Assembly: GCA_945865375.1 (NCBI GenBank) | Contig: CAMBEJ010000003.1 | Coordinates: forward strand, 9,862-73,861 | Direction of reading: 5' to 3' | DNA length: 64,000 nt | Source: Akkermansia muciniphila | Lineage (GTDB): Bacteria; Verrucomicrobiota; Verrucomicrobiia; Limisphaerales; F1-80-MAGS106 | Part shown: positions 5,262 through 62,818 of the stretch, in pieces | How positions within the stretch are numbered: the stretch's first letter is position 1 | Layout: each line of letters begins with the position of its first letter | Position numbers and translations under genes: made by a program | Notes under the pieces: model-generated | What the model saw: the letters and a program-made list of their open reading frames with translations, nothing else | Told to the model about the DNA's origin: nothing | Database searches by the model: none

Positions 5262-5407
5262 CCTGGTTTGACGCCACCTTACAGCTTCCTCTTCAGAGTC
5301 GTCCAGCCCGACTTGCAGCAATCCAGCAGTCCTGGCCCCAAGTGGCTCCCAATGGGCTCTCAGATGGATCGATCCCTGGAGTCAGTCGATGAATTACGGA
5401 GAAAACC

Positions 5408-28870: not shown

Positions 28871-29089
28871 ACGATTTTTATTATTGAACTGTATTCTGAC
28901 TTGCACGGTGTGAACCACTCAGGGGGTTTTTGTTATTTATTATTGCGTTTGTTTGTTCACCAGTTTACCCCTGCGAACCGCACACCCTCAAAATAGCAGC
29001 CTTGGTGCCAAAGTCAAATTTGATTTGATTGCTTGTTGTCCTCCTCAGTGCTCTGGCTACACTCTCCCTCGAAATCCAGATGCCGTCTC

Positions 29090-43300: not shown

Positions 43301-43395
43301 AAGGCTGTGGGCTGAGTCTGAGCCGAAGCCACGATGGCCCAAACCATGGCAAGCGAAGCACTGAGGCAAACTCTATGGAAACAGTTCACATTCAT
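40336..43395 (-). CDS. Secreted GEVED-type x2 / IgGFc-binding-N-terminal-like / HYR-like protein (shorter paralog of 35053..40317)
   Basis: 1,019-aa ORF with signal peptide MNVNCFHRVCLSASLAMVWAIVASAQ. Its ATG overlaps the stop of the giant ORF (ATGA at 43392-43395). Same module order as the C-terminal 1,000 aa of the downstream gene. Confidence 0.88.
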   Translation of the reverse strand: MNVNCFHRVCLSASLAMVWAIVASAQTQPTAFDFGDAPDGPYPTTLKNNGARHGILPGFSLGQKVDAEIDGKPNSDATGDDGSPVGAVDDEDGVAFNGSFLPGLKTTLTVRIVGEGRLSAWFDFNSNGSWADAEDQVFADLGLGPGPHVLNVFVPASAKPGRTFARFRLSHQSKLSFTGLASDGEVEDYSVNIESGQLDFGDAPETETTGFPTTLARNGARHQIQTGFHLGKTEDGEPNGLPNASATGDDVSGGASDEDGVRFLSPMVPGTLAQVEVTTTAGGRLDAWVDFNRNSNWVDSGERIFTAQTLVAGVNLLSFSVPVSSQYGTIFARFRLSHEGRLSFDGDGGAGEVEDYAVQIQKPARCDLSCSGTDFWLTFPGNYTPDPSNPVRPSLWVLGNAGTTVTVGIAGLGYSKTVVIPASLCVNVELPKGADLGDANDKVQQKGIHVTASEPVGIHGLSKAQFTSDGYLGLPTEVLGTEYYVLAYRDEQLGIPELNGSEFAVVAPEADTTITVIPSVVTGTHNAGEPFKVNLGAGDVYQLRTTPGAGSDLTGTRVLSDKPIAVFGGHACANVRSASSSFCDYLVEQMTPVSQWATEFYARRLSTRSKGDTFRVLAAYDNTVVSVNGAAVTTLAAGQFYETLRPTLALVATTQITATRPVLVAQYANSSDFDNTPKSDPFMTLVPGRLLFSPQQRFCVPSSGFLTHHVNIIAPTSAVGTVKLDGLVVVGFSAVGASGFSAATATVTVGVHSMTSSLPIGVTVYGWNEYESYGWPACLFFGDITPPVLSCPPPVTVTLGGGANTSGVKPCQALVPDFASKVIYTDNCPRSSVLVPVGSVPTQDPPAGTLVGPGVHEITCSVSDARGNIGYCTTTFTVIDPSPNPSALPELHCPSDLLVKCGDSNGAVVDYQAFATVGCQQVVLDGSPPRKSLFPVGLTVVTCTVPGSAPPIQCSFNIIVSCAQVVANLDQAKLMLEWEGGTTLQMADSPSGPWVDISSTGEIVTKSTSESKQKFFRVR

Positions 43396-46300
43396 GGAAT
43401 AGAACTGGGGTCGACCAAGTTGACCACCGCGATGCCGGAGAACGTCACCGGCTTATGGCCCGGTGTTGTCAATGTGGTTGCAGTTTGAGCTGTGACACCT
43501 CCCAAAGTGTCGTAATTCAGCACATCTTCCAATCCTCCTCCCCCTTCAATCTGGAGGGGCATCACGGCGGATGGAGTTATAATAAACGTGTCGCTACCAG
43601 AACTCCCAACAATCTTTTCGACTGTGTCATCCGCAAAGCTCACTGAATTCACGCCAATATTCGAGACGACTTTCGACCCGACCCCGGGTTTCAACGTGGC
43701 TGTGATTGAGTCAGAAGTGAAAAGGATCTCGTCGACATCCGAGATGATCGCGGGTGTTTCGACCACCAAATCAACGCCCCAACTGGGACCGAAAACATAG
43801 ACGTCGCCGCCGGCTCCGCCGCCCAGAGTGTCGTTGCCACGTCCGCCATTCAGCCGGTCGTTTCGCGAACCCCCTTTGAGGTTGTCATCCCCGGGCCCGC
43901 CATCGAGAACCACGCTACCCAAGCCAAAGTTCGTGGCATCCAAGTGGTTGTTGCCATCACCGCCAGTCAACTCTGCTGCCCGAATCCCAATGAGCGTGTC
44001 CGTCTCCGCTCCAATCTGCAACGAGCCGTTCAGCAGAACAAAATTAGCATCGCGGATTTCGAACACTTTATCGAGACCTGCGGGGCCCCCATCCAGCACA
44101 TCATTGCCCAAGCCACCCACCAGGATGTCGTCCCCGCTCCCACCACGAAGCGTGTCAGCGCCGTCCCCGCCTGCCAGAAGCACGGGGCCCAGCGTGAATC
44201 CCGCCGCAGATATTGAGTTGGGACCCGCACCACCAACGAGCGTGGCGCGTTCGATGCCCGTGATCGAGTCTGTCTCCAAACCGATCTGCAATGTGCCATT
44301 AGTAAGGACCATGTTGGCATCCCGAACAGCCACTACTCTGTCTTCAGCAGAGGCACCTCCGCGCAGAATGTCATTGCCCAACCCGCCGTCCAGCGTCACC
44401 GCGCCGAGCGTGAACCCAGACGCATCAAGGGTGTTCGAGGCGGCACCTCCCGTCAGAATCGCTCCTTCCATGGAGCTGAGGCTGTCGGATTCACTCGGCC
44501 CAATCTTCAATGTGGCGTTCGAGAGTTTAAAATCACTGTCGCGCGTCTCGGTGACGAAATCCACCCCGTCTCCGCCGATGAGCGTGTCGTTCCCAGGCCC
44601 GCCCGTCAGCGAATTGTTGAGGGCGTTGCCGATGATCTTGTCTGCTTTGGCACCGCCGATAACCGACTCGATGCTTTCAGGATTTCTAATTTCCAAAGCT
44701 AGATGAATGGTCGCATCTGGCAAAGTGGTCTCATCGATGACGACGATTTGCCGCGTCACCTGGGCAAGATCGACGCGTATCGAAAGCCCGGTTGTCTGAG
44801 AGAAATCGAGGGTGTCAACGCCACCACCAATCCCAGAGGTTTCGAGGATGATGTCGCTGCCTAGAATCAGGTCGCCATCGAACACATAACGGTCGTTACC
44901 CGGTCCCCCTGCCAGGTGATTCTCAAGGGAGTTGCCTTGAATCACATCGTCACCCGATCCCCCGATGACATTCTCGATGCGATCATTCGCAAGAAGATTG
45001 AGGAACAACCCCGGCTTGACCTGTTGCGGAAGAGCGTTGCCAAGGTTGATGCTGATGCCAACCCCAGTGGTCTGCGAAAAGTCGAGGGTGTCAATCCCCC
45101 CGTTCACGGATTCCACAATCGTCGCTGTCCCGGTTTCGGCATCCCCATCAAAACGGTAGGTGTCATTGCCCGCTTGACCGGCAAGGTTATCGTTCCCACC
45201 TTTGCCCTCCAGGATATCATCCCCAGCTTTGCCCGCTAAGACATCAGGGCCGCTGCCGCCCACAATCAAGTTGTCCAACGAATTACCCGTGAGGACACTG
45301 CCAAACTGGCCCCCCAGGACGTTTTCGAGGGATTCTCCAGACGAAAGGTTCAGAGCGAGGTTGACGTTGACGACTTGCGCGGGCGGGGTGTCATGCGAAA
45401 GGTCCACATTCGTTGGCAGGCTGGTTGTCGTCGAAAGATCCAAGGTGTCTACCCCGCCCTCCACGTCTTCGGCCTCGACAACGGTATCGGTCCCCAAGGG
45501 GAAGTCTGCATCAAAAACATAGGTATCGTTCCCGCGTCGGCCTGCGAGACCATCGTTCCCGCCCAAACCGCTTAGCCGGTTCTTGAGGCTGTTCCCGATC
45601 AAAAAGTCGTTCCCGCTGCCACCGATCAGGCTCTCGACGCCGTGGGCCACTATAAGGCGTAGAGACAAGTTTGGATTCACGACCTGTTTGATGCCGCGGC
45701 CCAGGTTCACCGTGACCGATGAGCTCGTCAGGACGAAATCAAGCGTGTCATTTCCTCCGGTGCCTACCTCCTCCCAAATATGATCAAACCCGAGCGGCCC
45801 GTCAGCGTCGAAGAGGTAAAGATCATCCCCATCGCCACCCTCCATCCAATCGTCACCAGCCAACCCCAGCAAGAAATCGTTACCAGCACCACCCAGGATT
45901 CGGTTGTTCAAACTGTTCCCGCTGAGCACATCGTTCAGCGAGCCGCCAATCACATTCTCAATGGAAATACCGCTGAAAAGATCCAACGTGTGCCGAGTCA
46001 AGGGTCCAGGAGCTGGGGTTCGAGCCGCGATCTGGGCGGTGTCCAGCAAAAGGCTGACCGAGACAATGGCGGTGGACGTTCCTGCATAATCGAGCGTGTC
46101 GATACCCCCACCAACGAGTTCATTTAGAGTATCGGTTCCCAGATCATTGTCAGCGTCGAAGCTGTAGGTGTCGTCGCCGCCTGAGCCTGTCAGCGAGTCA
46201 TTTCCCGCGCCTCCGATGAGAACGTCATCCCCGCTCCCACCCAGGAGGACATCGTCGGCACCGCGGCCATCGAGCGTGGCGGAGCCCGTGAATGCGGTCG

Positions 46301-49300
46301 CGTTGAGAGTGTTGTTGCTGACTCCTCCGATGAGTGTGGCAGCTTCGATTTCGATGATTGAATCGGTTTCACCACCGCCAAACACGAGCGAACTGTCAGT
46401 GAGCACCATGTTCGCATTACGTTCTTCCAACACCCGATCCACGAACGGTTTGCCGAATTGGTCGATGCCAACGCCGCCGTTCAGCACGTCATTTCCCTTG
46501 GCCCCAGTCAGGGTGTCGCTGCCTCTCAGACCCTCAATCTGGTTGACCAAATCGTTGCCTAGGAGCCGATCGTTGTTCTGGCCGCCGATAATGTTTTCGA
46601 AGACATCCCTAGCGGAGAGCCTCAGTTTGAGATTGATGTTGATGGTCTGCGCCAGTGCTGACCCGAGGTCCAAGGTGATTCCTAAACTTGTGGTTCCAGC
46701 GAAATCCAGGGTGTCAACACCTCCCGTGGTGGACTCTATGAGCAAGTCGCCCCCAACGTTGGAGAGTGGCGAGTCGGTGTCGAAGTAGTAGACATCGGCG
46801 CCATCCCGGCCTTGAAGGCTGTCATCACCGGCTCCACCAATCAGTTCATCAGGTCCATTGGTGCCTATTAAAGTATCGTTGCCACCGCGTCCATCCAACC
46901 GGGCTGTCCCCGTCGTGAAAGCAGCCGCATCCAGGAGGTTATCGCCTTCCCCACCCGTCAGTTCAACCCGTTCAATGGTTCCAAAATACGTATCCACTTC
47001 GCTCAACCCCACCTTCAGCTGCGAGTTGGTGAGTGTGAAATTGGCATCCCGTTCTTCAAAGATCGTATCGAGGCCATTCCCGGTGAGGCTGTCATTGCCC
47101 GAGCCACCCGATAGGAAGTTCTGACCAGAACCTCCGATCAGCGTATCGTTGCCGCCGCGCCCTTCCAACCGAACCTCGCCGCCAAAAGTCTGAGCATCCA
47201 GGGTGTTATCGCTGTCATCACCCACGAGGCTGACGTTCTCAAAGTCCGCGTAAGTGTCGGTTTCGCCGGCGGAGATCAAGGTGAGGGTAGTGTCGGTCAA
47301 GTTGAACCCGCCACCTCGTTCCTCGACAAGCGTGTCATTGCTGGTGTCCCCGGGCGGGCCGCCATCGACCTGGTCATTTCCTTCACCGCCGCGAATTCGG
47401 TTGTTCCGCTTGTTGCCGATCAGGACGTCGTTGCCAGTTCCTCCATAGAGATTTTCAATCCCTAGCGCGGAGGAGAGCGTGAGACTCAGATTCCCATTCA
47501 CCACCTGTGAGATCGTCTGGCCCAGGTCGAGCTTGAGTGCCAGCGTGGTGGTTTTAGAGAAGTCAACCCTGTCCTGATCTCGGAACGTCCCGAGGCTTAA
47601 GGATTCAACCACCCTATCGTGTCCCAAAATCGTGTCGGCATCGAAATAGTAGGTATCAGAACCAGGCCCTCCCCTCAAATCGTCATTGCCGCCCTTGCCC
47701 TCGAACTGATCATTCCCAAAACCCCCACTCAAAAGGTTGTCCAGACTGTTTCCACTCAGGACGTCATTTTGGTCTCCACCGATCGCATTCTCGATCACAT
47801 TGCCAGCAGGAAGGGTCAAAGAAAGTGTGGTTGTCACCTGCTGCAACAAAGTACTGCCGAGGTCAAGACTGATGGCGCGGCTGCTGGTTTGAGACAAATC
47901 GAGGGTGTCATTCCCGCCAAACGGTGAAGCGACCTCAATAATCAAATCGTTGCCGAGGTTCTTGTCGCCATCAAACAGGTAGCTATCATTCTCGCCACCG
48001 CCATTGAGAGTGTCATCGCCAACGCCGCCCTCGATGCGATCATTGCCGCCTTCTCCATACACCGTATCCGCGCCGGTGCCCGCCACCAAAACGTCATTGC
48101 CAACCCCGCCCAACAGCTGGGCAAGCCCGGCATTGCTGAAGTATCCGAAATCACCCAGGATGATGTCATCGCCATCCTGCCCGTAGATCGTATCGTCGTC
48201 GGGGCAAGGATTGTCAAAAATAAGCACGATCGCCTCAGGCAGGTTGCCATAAACCGGCCCTCCCGTTGGGTTTTTGAGGAATAATTTGAAATACTCGGGT
48301 GGCGTTTCGGTCAGAGCATCTTTCTTGATGGGTATGATGAAGGACAGTTCGTTCTCATCCACTCCGAAGCCGATTGTGCGCCTGCCAGGAACGCCTGCGG
48401 CACCGTTCTCCCAGATCCCGGTGTAATCAAGTCCGGATGTGGCCGTCACTCCCTGCGTCCAGTAAGTGCCCACAGGCTGCGTGCTGCCTGGCGTGCGAAG
48501 GATCGTGATCGTGGCGAAACCGTCTGTTTCCCGCACGCTGTAGACCAAGTGACTGAACTGGAGGCTCCACGGTCCTGCGGTGCCAGGCGCGACCGGGTGC
48601 AGTCCGGCATCGACGTTGCCCAGAGTCTGCCCGGCGGCGACCACGACTGGGTCCGTCAAGCCAGTAATGCCATTCGCATCGCTATCGCGGTCGTCGGTAC
48701 CCACATTGGCCGTCGCCAAGGTATAGCCGGCTGGCACTAGGAATTGGACCTGATAACTGCACGCAGCCAATTTTTCAAATTTATAGATTCCGACTGCGTC
48801 GGTATAGGTGATCCCCACCAAAACCCATTCCGAATCAAAGAGGTTAACCTGGACGTCTTTCACGCCAACCTCCGCGACAGCGCGTCGGTTGTCAGCGGGA
48901 TTGTTGTCAAGCCAGACACGCCCCGTAATCGTCGCGGGGGCGGGGATGGAAGCGGGGTCGACGTAGATTCGATTTCCATCCGGAAAGTCCGCCTGTTTCA
49001 AGGAGGCTGAGTAGGGTTTACCGGTGCAGCCGTATGCCGGCCCAAGCCAGTGCCCGCCAACCAGCCAGTCGTTGCCCGGGCCTCCATCCAATACATCGCT
49101 CCCTGGTCCGCCATAAACCACGTCATTGAAATAGGCCAACCCATTACCAGTCGAGGTATCCGGCTTTCCCTTTTTCGGCGGGGTCACAAACCCGAAATCG
49201 CGCAGTTTGAGGACGGTGGTGCTCACTTCGGCTATGAGCGGGTTGTTCCCCGTGGTCAGGGCGCTGTCAACCGGGGTTGTGCTCTCATCGACGGTGACCA

Positions 49301-52300
49301 CGAGCGTGCCGAGATAAACATTGGCCTTGTAGGAGCCGTCGGCCTCAGTCTTGACGGTGTACTCATTCTGGAAATCTTTGAGCTTCACGGTCACATTGGG
49401 CAAACCCCAGTCTGTGTCGGCGTCAAAGAACCCATCGTTATCAACGTCGTAGAACACCCGGCCGCTGACCAACGAAAAGTCGTTGTCGTAGATATAAGTC
49501 GTGTCCTGAAAGTAAACGATCTCGGCGTTGACCGGGTTGCTGATCATGCCAATCACGCTCTCAAGTCCCTCCGAGAGGCCGTCGTCAATAATGGGCACTT
49601 TCACCTGGAGAATCTTGGTGCCCGAGAACACCCCAAAGTTCAGCGTGCCCCCGGACGGAAGGAAGTCGAGAGGGGCGATCGCAGTCCCGTTGAGTGCGAT
49701 CCAATCTATTTTGACGGGGACCTCGGTTTTACCCTCTGCGATCACATCAAAAAGCAGGAACGCAGGATCAAAATCCCCCGGCGGCGGCACGGGATCTTCT
49801 TCAGAGTTCCCGTCGGGAAGATCGGGCCCCATGTTATTGACCGCGAAGATCTGCAGTGTCGGCAGCGGATCATCCTCCTGGATTGTGATTATGGTGGTCG
49901 GATTCAGCCCCCGCACAGGACCGCCTGTGGGGTTGAGCAGATTGAGAATGATCGTTTCATCCCCCTCATAGGCATCGTTGTCCACGATCGGGACCGTGAA
50001 CACTTTCGCGGTTTCTCCCACCTCGAAACGCACGAAGCCTCGAGGTCCGCTGGTTCCCTTTTCCCAGATACCCGTGTAATCCGAGCCTGCGGTGGCGGTT
50101 CCTCCAACACTCCAATACACCGCCACTGGCTCAGAGCTTCCTTCAGCCCTCACCAAGGTAATATCCAGGGAACCTTCCGATTCTTTGACCTCGTAATGCT
50201 TTCTCGCGAACTCGACATACCACGGGCCTGGATCTCCAGACTCATCGTTTTTAATCGTGATGACGGCGTGGTTCAAATCAGCGGCGATGACGTTCAGTCG
50301 ACCGTTGGTGGCACTCAATAAGTTAACAAAGAAGTACTCATCCGGCTCAAGGTGAGTGTCGCCTACCACCTCAAACTCGATGGCACTGTCCGTCGAGCCT
50401 TCCTTTATCGTCACGGTCTCGAATTTGTAGACGTAATCAGGCAACTGCCCGGTTGGCGCGGCATTCGATGCCGTTCCGGGCGACGTATTCCAATTGATGA
50501 CCACATCGCGACCACTGACCGCGCTCAAATGCACGTTCAGGGTCACGGGGGTGTTTCCAGCATGCCCTTCTAAGACGGTTTTGGTGATCGTTGGGAAAAA
50601 CTCAACAAATGGACGCGGATCATCATCCAGTATGCGGGCGGTCGCCACGGGCCGCACGACTTTGGCCGCATCCGAAGGCGTGCTCGGATCCAGCTGAATT
50701 CGAAGTTGGAACTGCTCATCATACTCGCTCAACGCATCTCCGAAAATCGGGATCACGACCGTCTTCTCAACTTCCCCGGAAGCGAAAGTCATCACTCCCG
50801 GCACGGTCTCCACAACAGCCGAATAGTCGAGGATTGGCCTGGCAGCGTCCACAACCCTGCGACCGCTCGAATCGACGACCTGCTGGGTCAAGTACTGGAT
50901 CTTGATGGGCTGCCAGCTCGGGTGGCTCAAGCGCACCACAAATGTCATCCCGGTGGCTTCGGGCACCGGGTTGATGAGGCTGAGCTGAACCCCATCCACG
51001 GCGCTGACTCCCGGGGCATCATCATCGTCGACAATGGTGCCAACGCCTTCCTTGTGCGCGGGGTCAAGCTCCGCATTCCACGGATCGTAAAGTTTCACTG
51101 TGAACGTCTGATCGGGTTCATCCATGAAATCACCGAGGATGGGAACTTCGATGCTTTTCTGGGTTTCTCCCGGTCTGAAAACCAACGTGTAGTCAACCGT
51201 GGAGTAGTCTGCGATATTCGTCGCCGTGCCCTTCACGGATTCATACGCCACGGTGATGATCTGGTCTGACACGCTCGTCAGCGTGACTGTAAACACCAGG
51301 AGTTGCTGACCTGTGTCCGCTTCGGTAATCGACGGGTTGTCGATCACGAGCAGAGGCTGGGTGCCTTTGACTCCCGCATCCCGCGAATAATCAATCTGTG
51401 CATCATTCAAGTGGAATGTTTCGGTCAAGCCAGTCCCCGTATTAACGTCGCTGTCGGCTTCGTCATCGGAACCTGTGTCTTTGTTGACGAAAGCCAAACC
51501 CGTCGGAAGTGTATAGCGGAGTTTGTAATCCCCGCCTTTGAGGCCAGTGAACTTAAACAAGCCACCCGTGTCAGTGGTGGTTTTTCCAACCACTGCATCC
51601 GTCGAATCCAACAGTTCGACTTTGATTCCTGGCACTCCCATTTCATGGCTGTCACGAACGTTATTTCTAATCCCATGAGCATCGAGGGAATCGAACCACA
51701 CCATGTTCCCGATATTGGCACCTGGGAAAGTCGTGAGGGCAGCGCTGTGGGCGTCGTCGGCGTAGATGATGTCATCCTGATCACCCCCATCGATGAAGTC
51801 CTGGGTATCGGTATCGGTATCTCCGGGTGTGGCCTTGCCGCTCACCAACAACGTTCCACCATACAGCGCATCTCGACCGCCCGCGCCAAAAAGCACATCC
51901 GTACCGGGGCCGCCAGCCAGCAAATCGTTGCCATTGCCATCGACGCCGGTGGCTTGAAGAAAGCTGACGATGGTTCCGTTGTCACCCAGAATGATGTCGT
52001 TACCTAACCCCCCGTCGATGTTGTCGTCGCCATCTCCGCCGACCAACCTGTCAGCGCCCAATCCACCGGTGATGGTGTCGTCCCCGGCACCGCCACTGAC
52101 GATGTCATCGCCTTCATCCCCGTCGATGGTATCGGCACCCTCGTTGCCCTCAATGACGTCATCTCCCAGCGAGCCGTAGAGTTTGTCATTTCCCGTCCCA
52201 CCCCACAAATGATCATTGCCAGCCCCCCCAAACAAGGTGTCGCTCCCGTCATCCCCATAAAGATTGTCATCGCCCTCCAGGCCCGTGAGCTCATCGCTCC

Positions 52301-55300: not shown

Positions 55301-58300
55301 AATCGAGCGTGGCGCTCGCGGTCACATTCAGTTTGGCATCGCCTTCCACTTGGATGATCTGGCTCACTCCTTCCAAGAGGGCGCGAGCCGGGTGACCTGG
55401 GGGGAGAAGATTGACTATCTCACCCAAGCTGAACTGCAACGGCAACGTGTTCCCGTAGGAGAGCCCAAATTGCAAATGAAACTTCAGCGCCGTCTCGGTG
55501 ATTGTGTTCGACCCATTGTTCGTGGGCCCGTCACCCACAGGCCCAGCGCTGGTGTCGAGGGACGCGGTGAATGGGCTGGTGGCGCTGCTATTGACCTTGA
55601 GGCGGACCGTCTCCGCCTTGGTATAGGTTGCGTTGTAATGGATCGTCAGCGTTTTCTTGACCGCATCGGCGAGGACATCCGCAGCATCAGTTCCGCTAGG
55701 CAACGAACCGTCATCGTCATAAACAATTTTCCACTGGTTGAACTCAGTCCCTGTGTTCTTGGCGGTGAACAACAACGCATTTTTCGCCCCGGAAGGATTA
55801 AACCAAGCGACGGCTCTCACGGCGGCGGAGCCACCTGCAGGCCCAGACTTTCGCGCATCATCCAGCGTGATTGAGAACTTGCTCGGGCTCAGGCCCAAGA
55901 AGTTCTCGATATCCGTTTCCAACTGCGTAATGGCCGCGCCATCGCCCTGCGAAAGCTTCTTGAACAGCCTGGAAAGATCCCCGGCAAAATCCAGAACATC
56001 GCTGACGCTCACGTTGACTAGCGGCAGTGGTTCACTGAGAAATGAGAACGCCTTGAGCCCTTCCAGCTCGTCGCTCAACGAGTCGAGAATGGCGACGACA
56101 TCCAGGAAGGTCGTGCAGCGGAAATCTCCAAACGAGCCGATCGCAGGGAAGGTGACGAAGACACCCTTTTTATTGGTCGCGACGTCGTAGGGGTCTGGGT
56201 TGAAGTGGATGTCATGGAAGTCCGGAACGAAAATCCCGAGCTGCGACCCCGCCGGTATGAGAGGGTTGCCAGAAGCCGTGGGCAGATCGGGAAGCACTTT
56301 GATGTTCTTGAGCTGGATATCGACGAAACCGCTCGTCTGTGTGTCTGGGGTCACATAACTTCCCAAATCGTTCATGTGCCTCAGCAGGACATCCAAGTCC
56401 AACCTGGTCGGATGGAGAGGGTCCGCAGCATGAGGGTTGCTCAGTTTAAGCGTCACCGAAAGGGCTCCGCTGGCGGTCCCACCGCTGGTCGAAATCTCAA
56501 AAATCGCAAACCTCGCCTTGGCTTTCAGATTATTGGCAGCCACCGCAAGCGTCCCTCCCAGATTCACATTCTCGAGGAACATCCCCCAACTCCCTGACCG
56601 GGCGGGGATCACGTTATTGAACCCCAACTCCGTCACGATGGGATCGTTGTTGGCCGATTCAATGGCGATGGAGCCGACCTTTCCGAGCCAACTATCTAGC
56701 TTCAGGTTGTTCTTGAAGAGGGGGTCATCAATCAGGACGTCTTCGTTCACATCGAGACGTCCGTCCGCATCCAGGTCTTCCGCAGCATCCAGGACGTGGT
56801 TGCCATTTGTGTCCTCGTTCACTTTGTCCAATTTGCCGTCAGCGTCGAGATCCTCGTTCACCGCCTCCAAAATGAGACCGGGGCCTGAAGTCGTAGCCGT
56901 GAAGTGAATAACTTGTCGCAACGGCGTTCCCCGGAAATCTGCCGCCCCCGCCAACAGACCGTTCAGATCGTTGATCAACTCCTGGAGGCTTGCCCGCGTT
57001 TTCTTGGGCAGCAAAAACCCAGCCCGATATTCCCCGTCGTTTAGATTGATCCCGAAGGTGGCCACCGCAGTGGTGCTGCCGCTCGACGGCGGCGGCAAAG
57101 TTGGCGAAGTTATTAACTTTGGAGCTGTGGCGTCCTTCAGGTCCACACCGATCGTCAAGGCCACGCTGGCGTCGCCGGTGATGGTGAAGATCCCGCTGGC
57201 TGAGACATCAGCCAAGTCTCCCAATCCAATATCGGAGTCATACTGGAACGGAGTCGTCTTGATGACGTGGTACCCGAAGCTAAGATCCAAGGCAAACGTC
57301 TTGTTCGCGATGTCCACCCTGGGATTGATATCGAATGGCGCGATGGCTTTTTTCAACTCGGCAACCACTTGCTGCAACGAAGGGAATTTAGGCAGTGACA
57401 TCCCTCCGTCGTCCCGCGTGAATCCGATTTCGGTGAAGGCCGGATTGGAGGCCTCACCCGTGATCTTTAGGCTTCCGCCAGCGATGAGTCTCAAGGCGAT
57501 TTGGGGCCCCTTCAAAAACGCCTGCGCCTTGCCGGCCAACCCGGCCGCCGTCAACGCTTCATTGATGTCCTTTACCAGGTCCGCGAGGGTGTTGTTTTTG
57601 TCAGCTCCGGTGTCCGTGCTGGCTTTTGTCACGGTCACAGTTTTGGCCGGCGCATTATCGATGGTCAGGGCGAAGACTGCATTGGCCGTGAGTTGCCCTT
57701 GAGCCAATTTACCGGTGGCATTGCCGTTGCCCGTGCTCGCCACAATCTGGATGTCCACGAGTTTGGCAAAGATCTTGTCGAGGAAGGCTCCAGAGAAGTC
57801 AAAAGAAGCTCCGACATCGAGGCCAGATCCAAACGGCAGCTCCAAACCCAGCATGGCGCTGCCGCTGAGTCCGCCGAGCCCGTTGATCGTCCGTTTCAGC
57901 TCTGAATAAAGGTCATCAATTCGAAAGTTAAGCAACCGATACAAGATTTCCGCAGGGCCTCCCACCGGCTTCACCGTCACCTTGAGTGGATCGTTAATTT
58001 CCGGCCAAATGAGCTGGACGGTGGCCAGGGGGAAATCGAAAAGGGGCGGTCCGCCGGGCTCCATGGCGGCGACCCGAATTCCCATCTGGAGAACCAGATC
58101 GTCCGCCAACGCGTCCGTCGCCAGACCGATGTTGAAGAAGGATACAGGGTTGTTGAGGAACTCGTAGAGGCGGATCTTCCCATCGCTCACATGGCCAAAA
58201 GGATCAACAGGCTCGGTGATGTCGATCTTGATTCCGACTCCGCTGGCCAAGTTGATGGTGGCGTTTTCAAGCGTCACGGCGAGCAGTCCGAAATTTCCTG

Positions 58301-61300
58301 ACGCCGTCAACGATCCGTTGACTTTCAGGTTCCGAAGCGTGAACTCGGGGAGGGCGGATGCGTCGGTCGCCACGTAGAACCCGCGTGCGTCGGCTCCCAT
58401 CTTGAGCATGAAATCGAAATCCGCAGACATCTCCAGATTACCATGAATTCTCAGCAAACCTCCCAACAAATCCAGGTTGATAGGCACCTCGAACGCGACG
58501 TTTCTTCGGAAGGGCTTGGCGGGGTTGCTGAGGTCCCCAAGGATCAGCTCGTTGGGGTCGTCATCGACCGTGACATTGGAAGGGATGTTATCCAACGATT
58601 CCAAGACCGCCTGGAAGTCGCTCGCGGAATTGATAAGCGTCCCCAGATCCGCCGGTCGAAATTTGCTGCCAGATTCAAAAAGCCGACGCCATAAGGAGTT
58701 GGTATCCCCGCCACTCCCTCCAGGCACAGGAGCGCCTGGGCCGCCGGAAGGAAATCCAATCGGGTTTTTCTTAGCGAAATCCGCCCCGTTTAATCCGCTC
58801 CCCAGGGCATCTCCAATCACCGGCAAATCAGGGCTCAGCGCATCCCCTATCGCTCCGAAAAACCCGGTGATGCTGTCCCAGATATTTCTCCAGAACGATA
58901 CGAAATCCTCGAAGGATGTCGTGTCATTGAAAGTCTCGACATGACGAGCGTAGACTTTCTGCAACCCTAGCTGCCGTATTTCGATCTCTCCTTCAGTGGC
59001 CACTTCCAGCTTGCTGGCGGCTGGGCCTTGGAAGTCTAATTCATCTCCCGGTGCGGCAGCGATTTGGTCTCCCCCATCAAATTCTATTCCCCCGGGAACC
59101 ACGATCTCACCGTGGACGCTATCGAGGATCAGTTTGTCGTTCCCGCCGCCTGTGTGAATCGAAATACGCCGAACGGTCGAAAGCATCACCGACTCCAAAA
59201 GGACCTCATCCACCAGGATCTCGAGTTCGGCAGGAGCCGCAGCAGCCTCCTTTAACCGAAGTTTTACGATGTCATTCCCAGCGCCCGTTTCGATTCTGAG
59301 CACCACGTCATGCACCAACAACCGGCTGATATTCGATAGACTCCAGGCACCTCGTCCTTGGGTTCCGGCCACCAAAATGTCATCCACCGCATCGTAAACC
59401 AAATCAGGGACCGACACATTCGGCATATCCTCACCCAACCTCGACCAGTCGACCAAGCCGAGAGCTACTAATCCCAAATCATCGGCGCTGGTCCAATAAA
59501 CACCGTTATGTGTGCCCGCAGCAATGTAAAGGTTTTCGCCGCTCCGCCAAACCTCCACCGCCTCGAATCCCCCTGTGATCGTTTTTAGATTAGCGGTGGC
59601 ATCTCTGACTGTCAGCGAACCGTTGTCCTCCACTCGAACGTACCATATATGGTTTCTGTCCACGGCAAAAGCGCTGCGCCAATCATTAGGATCCAAGGCG
59701 ATGCTCGTGATCGCACCCGATCCAGGTGCCGTCACGCTTTGGAACTTGGCACCGTCGTCTGAACTCACGGAGATCATCGCCCCGCGAGCCACGTAGATGA
59801 TTCCCGGTTCGTCGGTATTGCTCTCACGCCCGCCGTAAGCCAAGGCGGTCACATCCCGGTTATTTGACGCCAGCGCCGTGAGGACTCGGATCTCATTTCC
59901 TTCGTCCGTGCTCACATACACCATCGTGCGCCCCATGAGCAGCCATTTCTGGTTGATTGCGTTGACCACAAACGGGATGTTTTGGAAACCTTTGAAACCG
60001 CGATCCGTGGCAGCCGTCCCCCCCACTTGCTGAGCATTGTCCAATCCGCTGTTGTTGGCCGCGTTGGATATTGATTTGAGGGTCAAAGTCGTGGCATCGC
60101 TGAAATCATCGGCATCGGAAGGATCGGTAAAGCGTCGCAAAAAAAAGCCGTTGAAATTGTTCGACATGAAGAAGCGCGTGCTCGTCGTACCATCGTAACC
60201 GACCCCCACGTTGTTCCCGTCGCCTCCCGTGAGCGAGTCCCATACCTGGCCACCAGCGGTCTGGCGCACGACCCCGACATCCTGAGTACCCGCGAAGATC
60301 GAGTTGGTGTTATGGTCGTAGGCGACGGAGTGAGCGATCTCAGTCACTCGCAATCCTTGGCCGATGAATTGCCATTTGGGAGCGGGATTGTCCGCTCGTG
60401 GATTGCTCAACCGGTAAGGTCCGCCGTCACTGACCAATGATAGGTCATTTTTGTTAATGGAAAAAACCAGTCCCCTGACGTCACCATGAGGTGCTGACGT
60501 GTTGGCTCCTGGACCGCTGCCATCATCGCTGGTGATGGGCGACCAAGTCGAGGCGTTGCTGTCCCAACGATAGGCTGTGGCCACATACGGGTTAGTGGAG
60601 TAAATGGCGCCTGCGATGTAGACCCTGTCATCACTCAACGGGTCAGCCGCAATCGCGAAGTGCTTGTCACCCTGTCCCGTAGGATTCGTCTGGGGAACAT
60701 CAGACGATGTGGCGCTGGGGAATTTACCTAAGGGGAGCCACGCTCCACCTTGATTTATGGAACGGAAAACCCCTGCAAGCATCGGGCTGTTGGCCTTCGA
60801 GGGGTTTGGACCAATGATGGCCACATACACGGACTTGGTCCCCAACCCGCTCACCGCCAATCGAATTCGGCTGGCCGCGTCGACGGTCTCACCTGCTTCC
60901 GAAGCGACTCCGTCGTTGTCGTAGTCGGGGGTCAGTCCAGCGGTCACATTAGCCCAGGAAATGGAGGCGACCAAGGGTGCATTGGCATTATCCGCCCGGA
61001 AAACGCCCTTCACTCCGGGAGCGCCCAGGACACTCGCAGAGCTGATGGCCACATAAAACCGGCCAGCGCTCCCAGGTTCCTCTGCCACATCGGACACATC
61101 AAACTCGGGCAACGCGGGGGTGCCAATTCCAGACAAACGATCCCAACGCTCCCCGTCATCAAGAGACCGATACAAGCCCCCTCGCCCAGGAACGGAAGCC
61201 GAACTGGATACTTGGTCAAACGTGGATACCAAAACCAAGCCTGCCGTCGTTGAGGAAGGCACTATTCGGGTGATCCTCAGCCCATCGAAACTGCCGACCT

Positions 61301-62567
61301 CCTCCCAGGTGAGCCCGTCATCCAGCGACCGGAACACGCCCGCTGATTGTCCCCCTTTACCGGCGCTGCTGAATGTCCCCGTTCCCACGAACACCGTTCC
61401 GGGATTCACGGGGCTCACCGCCAAGGCTCCGATGGACAACGAAGGAAGATGGTCGCCGATGGGGGTCCAAGTCGGGCTCGCCGTGTTGAAATTCGTCGAT
61501 TTCCAAACCCCTCCGCTCGCTGCCCCCAGGTAAGCGACGGCGGCATCCGTCGGATGAGGAACCAAAGTTTGAACTGCCCCGATAACAGGATTGTTTGGCG
61601 AGACCAGCGTGTTCGCGTTATTGATGATGCTGAAAGGGCCCTCCTCCTTCCATGTCACGGCCTCGTTCAGGAGGGTGACTGAGGGCAGGCTCGGAACAAA
61701 CCGAAGCACCAAATCCTTGCTGTTCGTAGATATATCCAGAAGAAAACTGCCGGAGCCCAGATCGTTGACGCTCGCGAAGGCGGAGGCATCCAACGTAAAC
61801 TTGCTGCGCTCGAATCCCTGAATCCCTTGGGTGGTGTGCAGGATCCTCCAACTGCCAGCCGCTGTCTTGTCGAAATGTTCGGCTGAAGTCGCGATACCAA
61901 CGCCGTTTACGGAGTTAATTTCGATTTTGAAAGTACTTGCGGCTGTAGCGCTTATAGTTAATATCCCATGCACCTCAACAAGGTCCCAGCCCGGAGACTC
62001 CCCTTCAACACCCGCTGCGTCATCCATATCCCAGACGTAATTCTCGGTTCCGCTCCAAGCTTCATCCGTCGCCACAGACTCCTTGCCCGACAATTGGGTC
62101 GCTGAACTCGTTGATTCGCTCACTAAAGTTCGGCGAATCGAACCGGAATTGGGAGAGTTTAGATCGAAGGCAGGGGGCCCATTGGCGGACCGGAGTGTTT
62201 CAACGATTTGCTGAATGGTCGGATTCAATATCTGGCCCACATCCCCCTCGGAGACACTTTTCTCAAGGGTTGGCTGTGAACCAGACTCTTCATCGAGTAG
62301 TTTAGCCGCTTCCAGGTGCCCGGCAACTCCTCTGTCATCCAAACCGATGTCATCCGAAGCAATCGACGAAGCGGGCTCCGGAGTCGCGGTCGGAGTCGGA
62401 GTCGGGGCTACCAAGGGTTCGTAGGTGCTAAAATCTGACTCAAACAATTTCTCGGCATCACCCAATGAAAGCTGTTGAGAAATGTCTGCATGGGTTCGTT
62501 GTTCGGCTTCGGTGACAGGAACAGGAAGCAGGGGGCCTGGGAACGCGTCTCCCGACGGCGAGAGCAA
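43392..62567 (-). CDS. Giant (at least 6,391 aa) repetitive extracellular protein: Asp-box/BNR propeller, long unassigned region, RTX Ca-binding repeats, Calx-beta-like x6, SdrD-B/CnaB-like x3
   Basis: Single uninterrupted ORF. The track start is TTG 62567, but the frame stays open to 62675 (see findings). Asp-box motifs are RSLDDGLTWEE and RSLDDGERWDRL. There are many GGxGxDxL nonapeptides. Calx-beta-like blocks have the form GTAT.G.DY......F..GET.K...V.I..D...E..E.F. SdrD-B-like blocks include GRVWLDNNPADNRR..GVKDVQVNLFD. Confidence 0.9.
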   Translation of the reverse strand: MLSPSGDAFPGPLLPVPVTEAEQRTHADISQQLSLGDAEKLFESDFSTYEPLVAPTPTPTATPEPASSIASDDIGLDDRGVAGHLEAAKLLDEESGSQPTLEKSVSEGDVGQILNPTIQQIVETLRSANGPPAFDLNSPNSGSIRRTLVSESTSSATQLSGKESVATDEAWSGTENYVWDMDDAAGVEGESPGWDLVEVHGILTISATAASTFKIEINSVNGVGIATSAEHFDKTAAGSWRILHTTQGIQGFERSKFTLDASAFASVNDLGSGSFLLDISTNSKDLVLRFVPSLPSVTLLNEAVTWKEEGPFSIINNANTLVSPNNPVIGAVQTLVPHPTDAAVAYLGAASGGVWKSTNFNTASPTWTPIGDHLPSLSIGALAVSPVNPGTVFVGTGTFSSAGKGGQSAGVFRSLDDGLTWEEVGSFDGLRITRIVPSSTTAGLVLVSTFDQVSSSASVPGRGGLYRSLDDGERWDRLSGIGTPALPEFDVSDVAEEPGSAGRFYVAISSASVLGAPGVKGVFRADNANAPLVASISWANVTAGLTPDYDNDGVASEAGETVDAASRIRLAVSGLGTKSVYVAIIGPNPSKANSPMLAGVFRSINQGGAWLPLGKFPSATSSDVPQTNPTGQGDKHFAIAADPLSDDRVYIAGAIYSTNPYVATAYRWDSNASTWSPITSDDGSGPGANTSAPHGDVRGLVFSINKNDLSLVSDGGPYRLSNPRADNPAPKWQFIGQGLRVTEIAHSVAYDHNTNSIFAGTQDVGVVRQTAGGQVWDSLTGGDGNNVGVGYDGTTSTRFFMSNNFNGFFLRRFTDPSDADDFSDATTLTLKSISNAANNSGLDNAQQVGGTAATDRGFKGFQNIPFVVNAINQKWLLMGRTMVYVSTDEGNEIRVLTALASNNRDVTALAYGGRESNTDEPGIIYVARGAMISVSSDDGAKFQSVTAPGSGAITSIALDPNDWRSAFAVDRNHIWYVRVEDNGSLTVRDATANLKTITGGFEAVEVWRSGENLYIAAGTHNGVYWTSADDLGLVALGLVDWSRLGEDMPNVSVPDLVYDAVDDILVAGTQGRGAWSLSNISRLLVHDVVLRIETGAGNDIVKLRLKEAAAAPAELEILVDEVLLESVMLSTVRRISIHTGGGNDKLILDSVHGEIVVPGGIEFDGGDQIAAAPGDELDFQGPAASKLEVATEGEIEIRQLGLQKVYARHVETFNDTTSFEDFVSFWRNIWDSITGFFGAIGDALSPDLPVIGDALGSGLNGADFAKKNPIGFPSGGPGAPVPGGSGGDTNSLWRRLFESGSKFRPADLGTLINSASDFQAVLESLDNIPSNVTVDDDPNELILGDLSNPAKPFRRNVAFEVPINLDLLGGLLRIHGNLEMSADFDFMLKMGADARGFYVATDASALPEFTLRNLKVNGSLTASGNFGLLAVTLENATINLASGVGIKIDITEPVDPFGHVSDGKIRLYEFLNNPVSFFNIGLATDALADDLVLQMGIRVAAMEPGGPPLFDFPLATVQLIWPEINDPLKVTVKPVGGPAEILYRLLNFRIDDLYSELKRTINGLGGLSGSAMLGLELPFGSGLDVGASFDFSGAFLDKIFAKLVDIQIVASTGNGNATGKLAQGQLTANAVFALTIDNAPAKTVTVTKASTDTGADKNNTLADLVKDINEALTAAGLAGKAQAFLKGPQIALRLIAGGSLKITGEASNPAFTEIGFTRDDGGMSLPKFPSLQQVVAELKKAIAPFDINPRVDIANKTFALDLSFGYHVIKTTPFQYDSDIGLGDLADVSASGIFTITGDASVALTIGVDLKDATAPKLITSPTLPPPSSGSTTAVATFGINLNDGEYRAGFLLPKKTRASLQELINDLNGLLAGAADFRGTPLRQVIHFTATTSGPGLILEAVNEDLDADGKLDKVNEDTNGNHVLDAAEDLDADGRLDVNEDVLIDDPLFKNNLKLDSWLGKVGSIAIESANNDPIVTELGFNNVIPARSGSWGMFLENVNLGGTLAVAANNLKAKARFAIFEISTSGGTASGALSVTLKLSNPHAADPLHPTRLDLDVLLRHMNDLGSYVTPDTQTSGFVDIQLKNIKVLPDLPTASGNPLIPAGSQLGIFVPDFHDIHFNPDPYDVATNKKGVFVTFPAIGSFGDFRCTTFLDVVAILDSLSDELEGLKAFSFLSEPLPLVNVSVSDVLDFAGDLSRLFKKLSQGDGAAITQLETDIENFLGLSPSKFSITLDDARKSGPAGGSAAVRAVAWFNPSGAKNALLFTAKNTGTEFNQWKIVYDDDGSLPSGTDAADVLADAVKKTLTIHYNATYTKAETVRLKVNSSATSPFTASLDTSAGPVGDGPTNNGSNTITETALKFHLQFGLSYGNTLPLQFSLGEIVNLLPPGHPARALLEGVSQIIQVEGDAKLNVTASATLDLDFGLDLSGGCNLIPFLYDTTAMTLSAAVRATGVNLSAGIGSLKVSVKNGTVTLDKDGDPTTTDSATFAVGFKDNNGDGRHYFRSGEKFFDSDNIGMTLTGAASANLPLFALDSLPIGGATDGPDAGNEPDNWLVFQSGPLDKLFSGDTSLVLVRAPDISSLFDDINACDLIANPDILVDGLDALLGVIQDGLGSKLSRNMPLVGGQFGKAADFIMEFRTGLLAEFRQTLAEGGDPISLAKQAIFNALGTPGLDILAGVDGSPITNVDQVDIQCVGNAVKFNIRLKKAAKLLDTSSNPIDFDIGIPGLGLSVDGNVKIEAGFDLKLKFVVSATDGFYFDTSDPEELRLDFNVTIPGLKAKGQLLFLQLDVSDESDGKSLVGETRESSRFTGYFSVDLKDPVGSGNKLTIGDMTSSAFSFDKFIEAKLGAEANLALDLSLSFGGDTRFPRIVAEFDLKWSWVLGGDGAGSLAFGFHNVSLDIGSFISQFMGPIFKELKEITGPLEPVVDVITAPLPIISDIAGRDYSLLDLAEAFGMITPSTREFIDVLVVVIRLANSTVANDGSILLPLGSFDIEMDKFGNLQRKAGQVDGATVGIGDVGKFIVAPGWVTGSQISPANAGQAVGKENVSGGILSFLDDLEKIGITLPFLSIGEISKLFLGKPISLFEYHLPVLDFQAGFEIAIPIIGPLYVKFGGKIGAYADLTIGYDTFGIQKFFSSEDKNALDIFDGFYIKDVDKDGKDVPELSFFGQLYAAGSIDIVIAEAGVRGGLEVQVDFNLNDPDDDGRVRISEIVANAKKDIRCIFDIHGKFTAFLEAYLIVDLLLFKIDATFRFAEITLLEFDITCPEPKLADYVDASGNELDAADAGGSLRLNIGKYANEREIGDTTDGNENYKVVHVEDTAAGETVDVSFGGIKQTYRGVKKIWGRGGAGNDVINLRTVTSPVDSSKPERGLHGDDGNDKLYAGRGGGRYDGDNGNDIISAEDVADGYDGRGDEFHGGAGSDELTGLEGDDNLYGDDGSDTLFGGAGNDHLWGGTGNDKLYGSLGDDVIEGNEGADTIDGDEGDDIVSGGAGDDTITGGLGADRLVGGDGDDNIDGGLGNDIILGDNGTIVSFLQATGVDGNGNDLLAGGPGTDVLFGAGGRDALYGGTLLVSGKATPGDTDTDTQDFIDGGDQDDIIYADDAHSAALTTFPGANIGNMVWFDSLDAHGIRNNVRDSHEMGVPGIKVELLDSTDAVVGKTTTDTGGLFKFTGLKGGDYKLRYTLPTGLAFVNKDTGSDDEADSDVNTGTGLTETFHLNDAQIDYSRDAGVKGTQPLLVIDNPSITEADTGQQLLVFTVTLTSVSDQIITVAYESVKGTATNIADYSTVDYTLVFRPGETQKSIEVPILGDFMDEPDQTFTVKLYDPWNAELDPAHKEGVGTIVDDDDAPGVSAVDGVQLSLINPVPEATGMTFVVRLSHPSWQPIKIQYLTQQVVDSSGRRVVDAARPILDYSAVVETVPGVMTFASGEVEKTVVIPIFGDALSEYDEQFQLRIQLDPSTPSDAAKVVRPVATARILDDDPRPFVEFFPTITKTVLEGHAGNTPVTLNVHLSAVSGRDVVINWNTSPGTASNAAPTGQLPDYVYKFETVTIKEGSTDSAIEFEVVGDTHLEPDEYFFVNLLSATNGRLNVIAADLNHAVITIKNDESGDPGPWYVEFARKHYEVKESEGSLDITLVRAEGSSEPVAVYWSVGGTATAGSDYTGIWEKGTSGPRGFVRFEVGETAKVFTVPIVDNDAYEGDETIILNLLNPTGGPVRGLNPTTIITIQEDDPLPTLQIFAVNNMGPDLPDGNSEEDPVPPPGDFDPAFLLFDVIAEGKTEVPVKIDWIALNGTAIAPLDFLPSGGTLNFGVFSGTKILQVKVPIIDDGLSEGLESVIGMISNPVNAEIVYFQDTTYIYDNDFSLVSGRVFYDVDNDGFFDADTDWGLPNVTVKLKDFQNEYTVKTEADGSYKANVYLGTLVVTVDESTTPVDSALTTGNNPLIAEVSTTVLKLRDFGFVTPPKKGKPDTSTGNGLAYFNDVVYGGPGSDVLDGGPGNDWLVGGHWLGPAYGCTGKPYSASLKQADFPDGNRIYVDPASIPAPATITGRVWLDNNPADNRRAVAEVGVKDVQVNLFDSEWVLVGITYTDAVGIYKFEKLAACSYQVQFLVPAGYTLATANVGTDDRDSDANGITGLTDPVVVAAGQTLGNVDAGLHPVAPGTAGPWSLQFSHLVYSVRETDGFATITILRTPGSTQPVGTYWTQGVTATSGLDYTGIWENGAAGVPGRRTIGFGVDENELSFIIPIKKDALTETPPEYFKLFLKNPTGGPVYGNLPEAIVLIFDNPCPDDDTIYGQDGDDIILGDFGYFSNAGLAQLLGGVGNDVLVAGTGADTVYGEGGNDRIEGGVGDDTLNGGGENDSYLFDGDKNLGNDLIIEVASPFGGNDTLDLSQTSSRAISLDLGSTLLQQVTTTLSLTLPAGNVIENAIGGDQNDVLSGNSLDNLLSGGFGNDQFEGKGGNDDLRGGPGSDTYYFDADTILGHDRVVESLSLGTFRDQDRVDFSKTTTLALKLDLGQTISQVVNGNLSLTLSSALGIENLYGGTGNDVLIGNKRNNRIRGGEGNDQVDGGPPGDTSNDTLVEERGGGFNLTDTTLTLISAGETDTYADFENVSLVGDDSDNTLDAQTFGGEVRLEGRGGNDTLIGGSGQNFLSGGSGNDSLTGNGLDTIFEERDANFTLTNSQLKVGLSEVDTYFGTIERVELTGGEGDNLLDAAAFTTGTARLDGRGGNDTLIGTNGPDELIGGAGDDSLQGRDGADVYYFDTDSPLSNVGGDLLIESTTGGVDTLDFAGTTSLGITLDLGSALAQTININLKLRLSARDVFENIIGGQNNDRLLGNDLVNQIEGLRGSDTLTGAKGNDVLNGGVGIDQFGKPFVDRVLEERNANMVLTDSSLVFGGGETDSIIEIEAATLIGGVSNNTLNATAFTGSATLDGRGADDVLLGGSGDDVLIGGAGNDSLTGSGGDDTYSFDADNDLGTDTLNELVGGGIDTLDYAGTSTAIVSVSLLLDTAQIAARTPAPGPLTRHTLDLFSGISIENVIGGSLNDVLSGNSLNNRILGGAGNDFLLGLAGDDWMEGGDGDDLYLFDADGPLGFDHIWEEVGTGGNDTLDFVLTSSSVTVNLGRGIKQVVNPNLSLRLIVAHGVESLIGGSGNDFLIGNSLKNRLSGLGGNDGLAGRRGNDTYVFDADFPLGTDTVVEAEDVEGGVDTLDLSTTTSLPTNVDLSHDTPPAQVVNVNLALNLSSGESLENVLGGQFGSVLTGNSLDNLIVGGSGPDVLAGKAGDDILEGKGGNDNLAGQAGNDTYRFDGDAETGTATIVESVNGGIDTLDFSQTTGVGISINLGNALPQQVKPGLFLNLLANDRIENVIGGSGDDVIQGNSLENHLAGGPGNDRYVFDGDLILGSDIILETSGIGGGVDTLDFSQTTGLSIRVDLAQVTRQIVVIDETTLPDATIHLALEIRNPESIESVIGGAKADKIIGNALNNSLTGGPGNDTLIGGDGVDFVTETRDSDFKLSNATLKIGPSESDSLSSMEGAILTGGAASNTLDASGFTLGAVTLDGGLGNDILRGGASAEDRVVAVRDANMVLTNGTLQIGLETDSITGIERATLVGGAGPNSISAAGFTLGPVLLAGGDGADTLRGGSGDDILVGGLGNDVLDGGPAGLDKVFEIRDANFVLLNGSLQIGAETDTLIGIRAAELTGGDGNNHLDATNFGLGSVVLDGGPGDDNLKGGSRNDRLNGGRGNDTLGGGAGGDVYVFGPSWGVDLVVETPAIISDVDEILFTSDSITATLKPGVGSKVVSNIGVNSVSFADDTVEKIVGSSGSDTFIITPSAVMPLQIEGGGGLEDVLNYDTLGGVTAQTATTLTTPGHKPVTFSGIAVVNLVDPSSIP

Positions 62568-62818
62568 GCCGTCCGAGGAAAGATAGACGCGAGATTCTAG
62601 AAGTTGAAGCTCGAAAGTTTGAATAAGCCTTTTTCTGTTAAATGCCGCCAGGACACAAGGGGCTAAATTGAGCCATTAGTCAAGACCGGCCCGCCCCCGC
62701 CAGCCCGGCAAATCTCACGATCCCGTCAGGTCACGAACTCTGAGGCTTGCAGCAAAACAGCGATGGCGCTCTGAATTGAAGCACCATCCCCGCCGCCGAC
62801 ATCAACATCAATTAGGGT

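Follow-up and report, generated by a model that had tools for sequence, protein, structure and literature searches.

The giant cell-surface proteins of the Planctomycetes-Verrucomicrobia (PVC) group of bacteria and the RTX adhesins are among the described systems closest to the locus analysed here. The LEPR-XLL/Planc_extracel motif is a proposed novel N-terminal export signal, and was found on eight of the ten longest proteins (4,016-10,566 aa) of the planctomycete Tuwongella immobilis (PMC8567305). The same N-terminal signature is modelled as NF012209 (LEPR-XLL) and as PF07595 (Planc_extracel), and the class is defined by this motif alone. RTX adhesins, the substrates of type I secretion systems (T1SS), use calcium-stiffened repeats as extenders and contain 'split' domains from which other domains emerge (PMC7493085, PMC12077191). 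Giant RTX proteins are usually annotated by their calcium-binding repeats alone and are presumed to be T1SS adhesins or toxins. Here we describe a giant open reading frame (ORF) on the reverse strand of a stretch of 64,000 nucleotides from Akkermansia muciniphila assembly GCA_945865375.1 (contig CAMBEJ010000003.1, positions 9,862 to 73,861; hereafter the window), in which the part that is blank in the databases is the most conserved one. Protein classes of this kind are known, and the gene is an ordinary example; the new part is a module that directly precedes its first block of RTX repeats.

We favour, as probable, the reading that the ORF is an intact gene from a freshwater, Pedosphaera-like member of the Verrucomicrobiota and encodes a calcium-dependent extracellular or cell-surface protein of about 6,400 aa, which belongs to the giant LEPR-XLL class of PVC bacteria, together with the stalk and export scheme set out below. 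In common with that class, the gene has a PVC host, a product longer than 4,000 aa with Calx-beta and Ig-like content, an N-terminal motif of the RRLxxExLExRxLL type (canonical in orthologs, degenerate here) and other giant surface-protein genes adjoining it. The features on which the argument turns are given below, residues being numbered from 62675; the numbering of an earlier, sequence-only reading of the window is lower by 36.

43392..62675, reverse strand: giant open frame of 6,427 codons plus stop; first canonical start TTG at 62567; collinear orthologs of 6,012-6,567 aa
55476..59300, reverse strand: first part of the central region, residues 1126-2400 (hhalign, unit and small-domain hidden Markov models, AlphaFold2)
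52476..55475, reverse strand: pre-RTX module, residues 2401-3400 (HMMER family, RTX adjacency, ortholog conservation, AlphaFold2)
52929..52964, reverse strand: EF-hand-type calcium loop DPDDDGRVRISE, residues 3238-3249 (regular-expression match, family invariance)

The translated frame was scanned in 900-aa tiles against Pfam and NCBIfam and was also searched against itself. The tiles over residues 1281-3460 gave no Pfam or NCBIfam match at E≤0.1, and a PDB sequence search with the centre of the protein gave no family match. The sequence-only reading had placed some 2,280 aa of the centre in no characterised family, and this was upheld, as Pfam, NCBIfam, PDB sequence and profile searches and Foldseek all failed to provide an assignment. 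Its view of the centre as one novel block had to be given up: the last 650-1000 aa are a widespread unannotated module, and the first 1,270 aa are lineage-restricted, paralogous versions of its building blocks. A word-indexed search with residues 1101-3440 returned 97 large proteins, nearly all of which matched only from about residue 2400, 2640 or 2757 to residue 3400, continuing into RTX block 1 (BLAST and phmmer). In an exhaustive HMMER comparison of residues 2640-3395 with 1.84 billion cluster representatives (50% identity), the module was recovered from 2,371 of them at E≤1e-3, a number that fell to 1,701 at E≤1e-10 and to 863 at E≤1e-30. The named carriers belong to at least six phyla (Verrucomicrobiota, Planctomycetota, Cyanobacteriota, Pseudomonadota with Burkholderiaceae and Magnetococcales, Chloroflexota and Actinomycetota), and, unlike the motif-defined LEPR-XLL class, the module is also found in non-PVC proteins without the motif.

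The module is present in a single copy per protein and is followed by RTX repeats, scored as at least three RTX nonapeptides within 260 aa after it, in 160 of the 171 proteins that could be evaluated. The N-terminal heads vary, including DUF4347, PF26766, LCAT, PG_binding_1, FG-GAP, P_proprotein, Dockerin and OmpA, and apart from these heads the precomputed Pfam annotation of the module proteins consists of PF00353 alone. Among orthologs of the giant ORF the module is the best-conserved segment, with 78-79% identity and zero gaps, against 52-67% in the other structured regions and lower values in the N-terminal linker and C-terminal tail; counterparts in Pedosphaera sp. and in metagenome-assembled genomes (MAGs) of Verrucomicrobiales are 61-78% identical. 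No paper on the module was found in the literature on LEPR-XLL, DUF4347 and giant RTX proteins of PVC bacteria. By these sequence comparisons, the module is a domain family new to the databases searched, with no counterpart in Pfam, NCBIfam or PDB, and the centre is a large uncharacterised domain family, possibly with a new fold.

Several relatives differ in what surrounds the shared parts. Two metagenomic paralogs (P0092 and P0094) combine LEPR-XLL and an OmpA peptidoglycan-binding domain with the propeller of the giant ORF and the first part of the centre; Pfam finds no RTX in P0092, and this architecture suggests an envelope-anchored variant. Actinobacterial module-RTX proteins from Kribbella, Nocardioides and Rhizocola (P0039, P0045 and P0052; locus L004), with Sec-type signal peptides as judged by eye, share a distinct conserved C-terminal domain, …GHGTG.AYP.TPGHFDD..C. 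In Anabaena azotica (P0031, locus L007) a DUF4347 module protein is flanked by genes for a rotamase (peptidyl-prolyl isomerase) and a DsbA-like thioredoxin, periplasmic folding factors that would fit the conserved Cys pair and Pro-rich motif of the module.

Cryptic internal repeats, suspected in the sequence-only reading, were found with profile hidden Markov models (HMMs) and hhalign; self-BLASTP of the centre had shown none, and profile methods were needed to reveal them. An HMM of residues 2755-2880, taken from the family alignment of unit 4, matched residues 1403-1510 (E 2.5e-12) and 2444-2538 (E 1.5e-9). A combined unit HMM recovered the copies of its training set, namely unit 1 (1391-1519, 2e-26), unit 3 (2440-2561, 9e-25) and unit 4 (2750-2880), and outside that set it matched both portions of a split unit 2 (1809-1849, 1e-5; 2041-2095, 6e-4) and residues 3155-3258 (5e-5) within unit 5, a beta domain spanning 3087-3340. 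When the two halves of the centre were compared by hhalign, three register-shifted matches reached probabilities of 96-97.6%. Profile comparison thus shows the centre to be composed of five diverged predicted beta units of about 130 aa, the second of them split, with helical bundles and small inserted domains interspersed between them. The first part (residues 1126-2400) contains a degenerate beta-roll-like cap, helical bundles, unit 1, split unit 2, two small alpha/beta domains and an Asp-rich stretch (1942-1990). The alpha/beta domains at 1659-1775 and 1865-1945 (window 56841-57699) are mutually homologous (HMM independent E-value 1e-10), and the second of them lies, with the Asp-rich stretch, in the insert inside unit 2. 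The module itself runs through unit 3, a helical bundle, unit 4, a Pro-rich conserved helical segment (2940-3020), a variable loop, unit 5 and a cap (3340-3400). Exhaustive HMMER and local BLAST found about 8 to 60 homologs for residues 1126-2400, depending on the stretch and mainly in Verrucomicrobiota, and the notion of a near-orphan region, which came from the single protein returned by the word-indexed search, was dropped.

Unit 5 holds the calcium loop DPDDDGRVRISE, which fits the pattern D-x-D-x-D-G-x-[ILV]-x-x-x-E. Across the family the D, D, G and E of this loop do not vary (D859, D863, G864 and E870 in alignment A3), and beside it lies a Cys pair, C3260/C3303, that is conserved in the family consensus. 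EF-hand loops were the only matches in a PDB profile search (neuronal calcium sensor 1, E 0.025). While the loop has the 12 residues of an EF-hand, it is preceded in the AlphaFold2 model by a beta-strand and not by the first helix of a helix-loop-helix, and EF-hand_1 scored below its cut-off on the family consensus (15.1 vs 25.4 bits, E 0.017). Pfam searches of that consensus gave only sub-threshold noise, from EF-hand, LmeA, VipA and FliK. The consensus also suggests that similar calcium loops may occur in other units. Self-processing of the FrpC type was considered because of the Asp-Pro bonds in the calcium loops and found unsupported, with no match in PDB sequence or profile searches.

AlphaFold2 models were obtained for residues 2380-3420 (38 sequences; pLDDT 75.8, pTM 0.51) and 1126-2325 (20 sequences; pLDDT 66, pTM 0.49), and in both of them beta-hairpins of great length (strands of 15-28 residues) alternate with helical bundles. 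Foldseek searches with the two models against PDB, and with one of them against BFVD, returned nothing at E≤0.001. A likeness to FliD D2-D3 (probability 0.92, E 0.039, TM-score 0.39) was not taken as an assignment and probably reflects the small inserted alpha/beta domains.

In CyaA and the RTX cytolysins the RTX block is directly preceded by a conserved non-RTX region, and the N-terminus of CyaA forms a distinct catalytic head. The order of head, conserved module and RTX repeats seen here mirrors that arrangement, and it could be envisaged that the module is membrane-active, as a pore-former or translocator which delivers or anchors the variable N-terminal heads. The unusual length of the amphipathic hairpins in the models and the standing of the module as the most conserved part of the protein would agree with such a role, and the top non-significant Foldseek matches were pore states of gasdermin, MACPF, LukGH and alpha-hemolysin. 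These pore matches are, however, at noise level (best E 0.0086-0.04, probability ≤0.35, TM-score ≤0.15), and outer-membrane barrels and lipid binders score equally, suggesting a generic 'long beta-sheet' signal. No hydrophobic helices were seen on reading the sequence, and the two most hydrophobic hairpins (3262-3301) resemble buried core. In contrast to the cytolysins, moreover, the module is beta-rich, a hydrophobic helical domain is lacking, no HlyC-type acyltransferase gene lies nearby, and the NCBIfam models RTX_toxin and EhxA match here only in the repeats, far below cut-off. We thus regard a membrane-active module as very doubtful. Doubtful too is a broader proposal, in which the module would be an undescribed fold acting as a calcium-triggered, membrane- or envelope-engaging device of long beta-hairpins, the functional core of giant secreted proteins across phyla, and would anchor or deliver interchangeable heads by whichever export route the host provides (PVC signal, Sec or T1SS). 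If this were true, RTX repeats would be uncoupled from T1SS in this class.

The lipid binders among these weak matches bring in the least likely of the explanations considered here, a lipid-binding beta-groove of the BLTP/AsmA/TULIP type. It draws on three independent signals below threshold, namely Foldseek matches to LPD-3 (E 0.05, probability 0.06), lipovitellin and LptD, a separate Foldseek match to LBP (E 0.04), and a Pfam match of the unit consensus to an LmeA-like phospholipid-binding family (E 0.04). None of these signals is significant, Pfam gave no AsmA, TamB or DUF490 match, and the calcium loops and extracellular context are unlike those of known members. Homology to TamB was rejected, as the hhalign probability between the module profile and TamB of E. 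coli was 0.1%.

Outside the centre, the tile scans and self-searches confirmed the N-to-C order of domains proposed in the sequence-only reading, and its coordinates agree to within a few tens of bases. The remaining features of the protein, with the gene that follows it, are these:

62571..62639, reverse strand: degenerate LEPR-XLL/Planc_extracel-like motif NRKRLIQTFELQLLESRVYLSSD, aligning with the canonical motif of orthologs
62364..62408, reverse strand: Thr/Pro linker APTPTPTATPEP, read from the sequence
61671..62063, reverse strand: small beta-rich domain of about 130 aa with no family match (55-60% identity in close orthologs; noise-level Pfam only)
59346..61538, reverse strand: Asp-box (BNR/Sortilin-Vps10-like) beta-propeller region (motifs and sub-threshold HMMs)
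51726..52475, reverse strand: RTX block 1, residues ~3401-3650 (PF00353, E 2.9e-30; nonapeptide positions)
48213..51713, reverse strand: array of SdrD_B, five Calx-beta, SdrD_B, mini-RTX, SdrD_B and Calx-beta (Pfam and self-search)
43791..48200, reverse strand: RTX block 2, residues ~4826-6295 (about 15 composite units of 70-110 aa, serralysin-C-terminal-like)
43395..43790, reverse strand: non-repetitive C-terminus of 132 aa (31-44% identity in close orthologs)
40336..43395, reverse strand: GEVED and IgGFc_binding protein of 1,019 aa, its start overlapping the stop of the giant ORF (ATGA)

The architecture shown is therefore export motif, linker, small beta domain, Asp-box propeller, centre, RTX block 1, SdrD_B/Calx-beta array and RTX block 2. 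The propeller region has four Asp-boxes of the form S-x-D-x-G-x-x-[WF], at residues 450, 504, 639 and 971, and its HMM support is below threshold, with Sortilin-Vps10 at 12.7 bits against a 33-bit cut-off and Kelch_3 and F510_1955 likewise. The homologs P0002, P0003 and P0092 also have Sortilin-Vps10 or BNR_2 matches below threshold, Sortilin-Vps10 reaching 23-24 bits. In the array, SdrD_B copies lie at residues 3655-3768, ~4405-4500 and 4582-4692 (up to 97.1 bits) and the six Calx-beta copies at 3793-3884, 3943-3994, 4043-4144, 4153-4268, 4311-4396 and 4705-4821 (133.5 bits), both families scoring above the Pfam gathering score; the mini-RTX is at 4516-4541. PF00353 (RTX/HemolysinCabind) matches with E down to 5e-42, and the protein holds 43 matches to the nonapeptide motif. 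RTX block 2 lies where the sequence-only reading had put it; it is made not of continuous nonapeptides but of composite units, each with two to four nonapeptides and a non-RTX segment ending in a strand of the …IENV.GG type. These units match PF08548 and NF035945, as in the serralysin-type beta-roll (Peptidase_M10_C), although the protease domain of serralysins is absent; the NCBI name of homolog P0001, 'M10 family metallopeptidase C-terminal domain-containing protein', reflects the repeats only.

The ORF listing gives an unbroken frame of 6,391 codons (43392..62567, reverse strand) from the TTG at 62567, and in the translation a further 36 codons are open 5' of this TTG, the frame closing at a stop just upstream of 62675. 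By our own estimate from base composition, about 3.6% stop codons would be expected at random at 57% GC, so an open run of 6,427 codons is not due to chance. Ortholog frames are intact in independent Verrucomicrobiota MAGs (6,567 aa at locus L010, 6,106 at L012, 6,421 at L013 and 6,012 at L017), and a cluster representative of 6,442 aa (P0100) aligns with residues 79-6420 at 46% identity. One housekeeping protein encoded in the window is identical to a protein of MAG GCA_947446415.1. The uninterrupted ORF reported in the sequence-only reading is thus borne out by the listing, the translation and the collinear intact orthologs.

As the sequence is MAG-derived, an assembly artefact or a decaying pseudogene copy has to be weighed, and the N-terminus is where such a reading finds its evidence. 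No in-frame ATG, GTG or TTG lies upstream of the LEPR-XLL-like motif (62567-62678, reverse strand), the only in-frame alternative starts there being CTG (62651) and ATT (62624), while the ATG at 62676 belongs to the +1 frame, which closes after 12 codons. The motif reported by the sequence-only reading is therefore present, but it lies 5' of the first canonical in-frame start and so outside the ORF that begins at TTG. In orthologs the motif is canonical, for example MSFQRQFEIELLEPRLLLS, with an ATG or GTG directly 5' of it in all of them; the window's version, NRKRLIQTFELQLLESRVYLS, aligns with these and is degenerate. Orthologs P0101, P0125 and P0098 pass NF012209 with 22.5-30.2 bits against a 17-bit cut-off, whereas the N-terminus in the window gave no match to it even at E≤10. 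The closest named ortholog, P0098, whose module is 61% identical, is annotated 'LEPR-XLL domain-containing protein [Verrucomicrobia bacterium]'. The window copy may use a non-canonical start, carry a 1-nt indel or have an N-terminus in decay, and its export is uncertain because the motif fails NF012209 and has no canonical start upstream. For the gene as a whole, an artefact or pseudogene is highly unlikely. The stop-free codons are collinear with orthologs from end to end, and the frame is translationally coupled to a conserved downstream gene. Near-identical DNA repeats were not detected within the ORF by TRF and a repeat finder, whose best find was a family of 51-nt segments with 61-75% identity, and collapse or expansion of repeats during assembly is therefore unlikely. 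Judged from these sequence data, the giant ORF is a real gene and not an assembly artefact.

From the position of the RTX repeats near the C-terminus, the sequence-only reading had taken the protein for a T1SS substrate. The corresponding explanation is a classical RTX adhesin, exported C-terminus first through ABC, membrane fusion and TolC components by means of an uncleaved C-terminal signal, with calcium-driven folding as a ratchet and the centre as extender. The RTX repeats are abundant and end 132 aa from the C-terminus, and all the identified domain types bind calcium. With LapA, MpIBP, SiiE, FrhA and the Aeromonas RTX adhesin the protein shares its giant size, C-terminal RTX, a calcium-stiffened repetitive extender and a split domain with an insert, unit 2 being split in this way. 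The extender, however, is a novel arrangement of beta units and helices and not of BIg repeats, the putative ligand-binding head is N-terminal and not near the C-terminus, and no retention module was recognised. No T1SS ABC, membrane fusion or TolC genes are present in the window, where the single HlyD-like gene is part of an AcrB-type RND pump, and none lie within 10 kb of six homologs, although unlinked systems are possible. At E≤0.1 no NCBIfam T1SS C-terminal target model matched the protein, such signals lacking a reliable consensus. Orthologs carry the N-terminal export-type motif. In the single-membrane relatives, module-RTX proteins of Actinobacteria and Chloroflexi, Sec-type signal peptides were recognised by eye, so that RTX repeats in this family are not tied to T1SS. 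The T1SS reading is thus unproven, and we consider a classical T1SS adhesin unlikely, if less so than the other alternatives.

In the favoured reading, a calcium-dependent surface protein of the giant PVC LEPR-XLL class, export would more likely proceed through an N-terminal PVC-type signal than through a dedicated neighbouring T1SS, with the Sec pathway in its place in single-membrane relatives. After export, binding of calcium by the EF-hand-type loop or loops, the RTX rolls, Calx-beta and SdrD_B would fold and stiffen the chain, and the resulting long stalk would hold out the N-terminal propeller, a head for binding glycans or ligands. Since Gly, Pro, Leu and Asp make up almost all of its invariant residues, the pre-RTX module may serve not as an enzyme but as a conserved, calcium-stabilised chassis for folding of the adjoining beta-roll. 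Several points weigh against this picture. The propeller assignment comes from motifs and sub-threshold HMM matches only, and the window's own motif fails NF012209 with no canonical start codon upstream of it. Where the protein and its module-bearing relatives are located is deduced from their sequences, as is the stalk or chassis role, and the top conservation of the module argues for more than a spacer. Once named and solved structurally, the module would provide annotation for thousands of very large 'hypothetical' or 'calcium-binding' proteins and a test of whether RTX repeats imply type I secretion in these lineages. It might also bring to light a new structural principle, dependent on calcium, for metre-scale surface fibres of bacteria.

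The 1,019-aa GEVED/IgGFc_binding gene is also found directly downstream of the orthologs at loci L010, L012, L013 and L018, and the giant protein probably acts together with this translationally coupled partner. Further downstream lies a 1,754-aa paralog of the GEVED and IgGFc_binding protein (35053-40317, reverse strand). A subtilase with PA and P-domain (32337-35063, forward strand) converges on this surface-protein operon and is adjoined by a 1,068-aa protein with a spermidine-synthase-like domain (29033-32239, forward strand). Upstream of the giant ORF lies an ORF for Big_9, cadherin-like and I-set Ig domains (62819-63979, reverse strand), probably the 3' portion of a further very large surface-protein gene cut off by the window edge.

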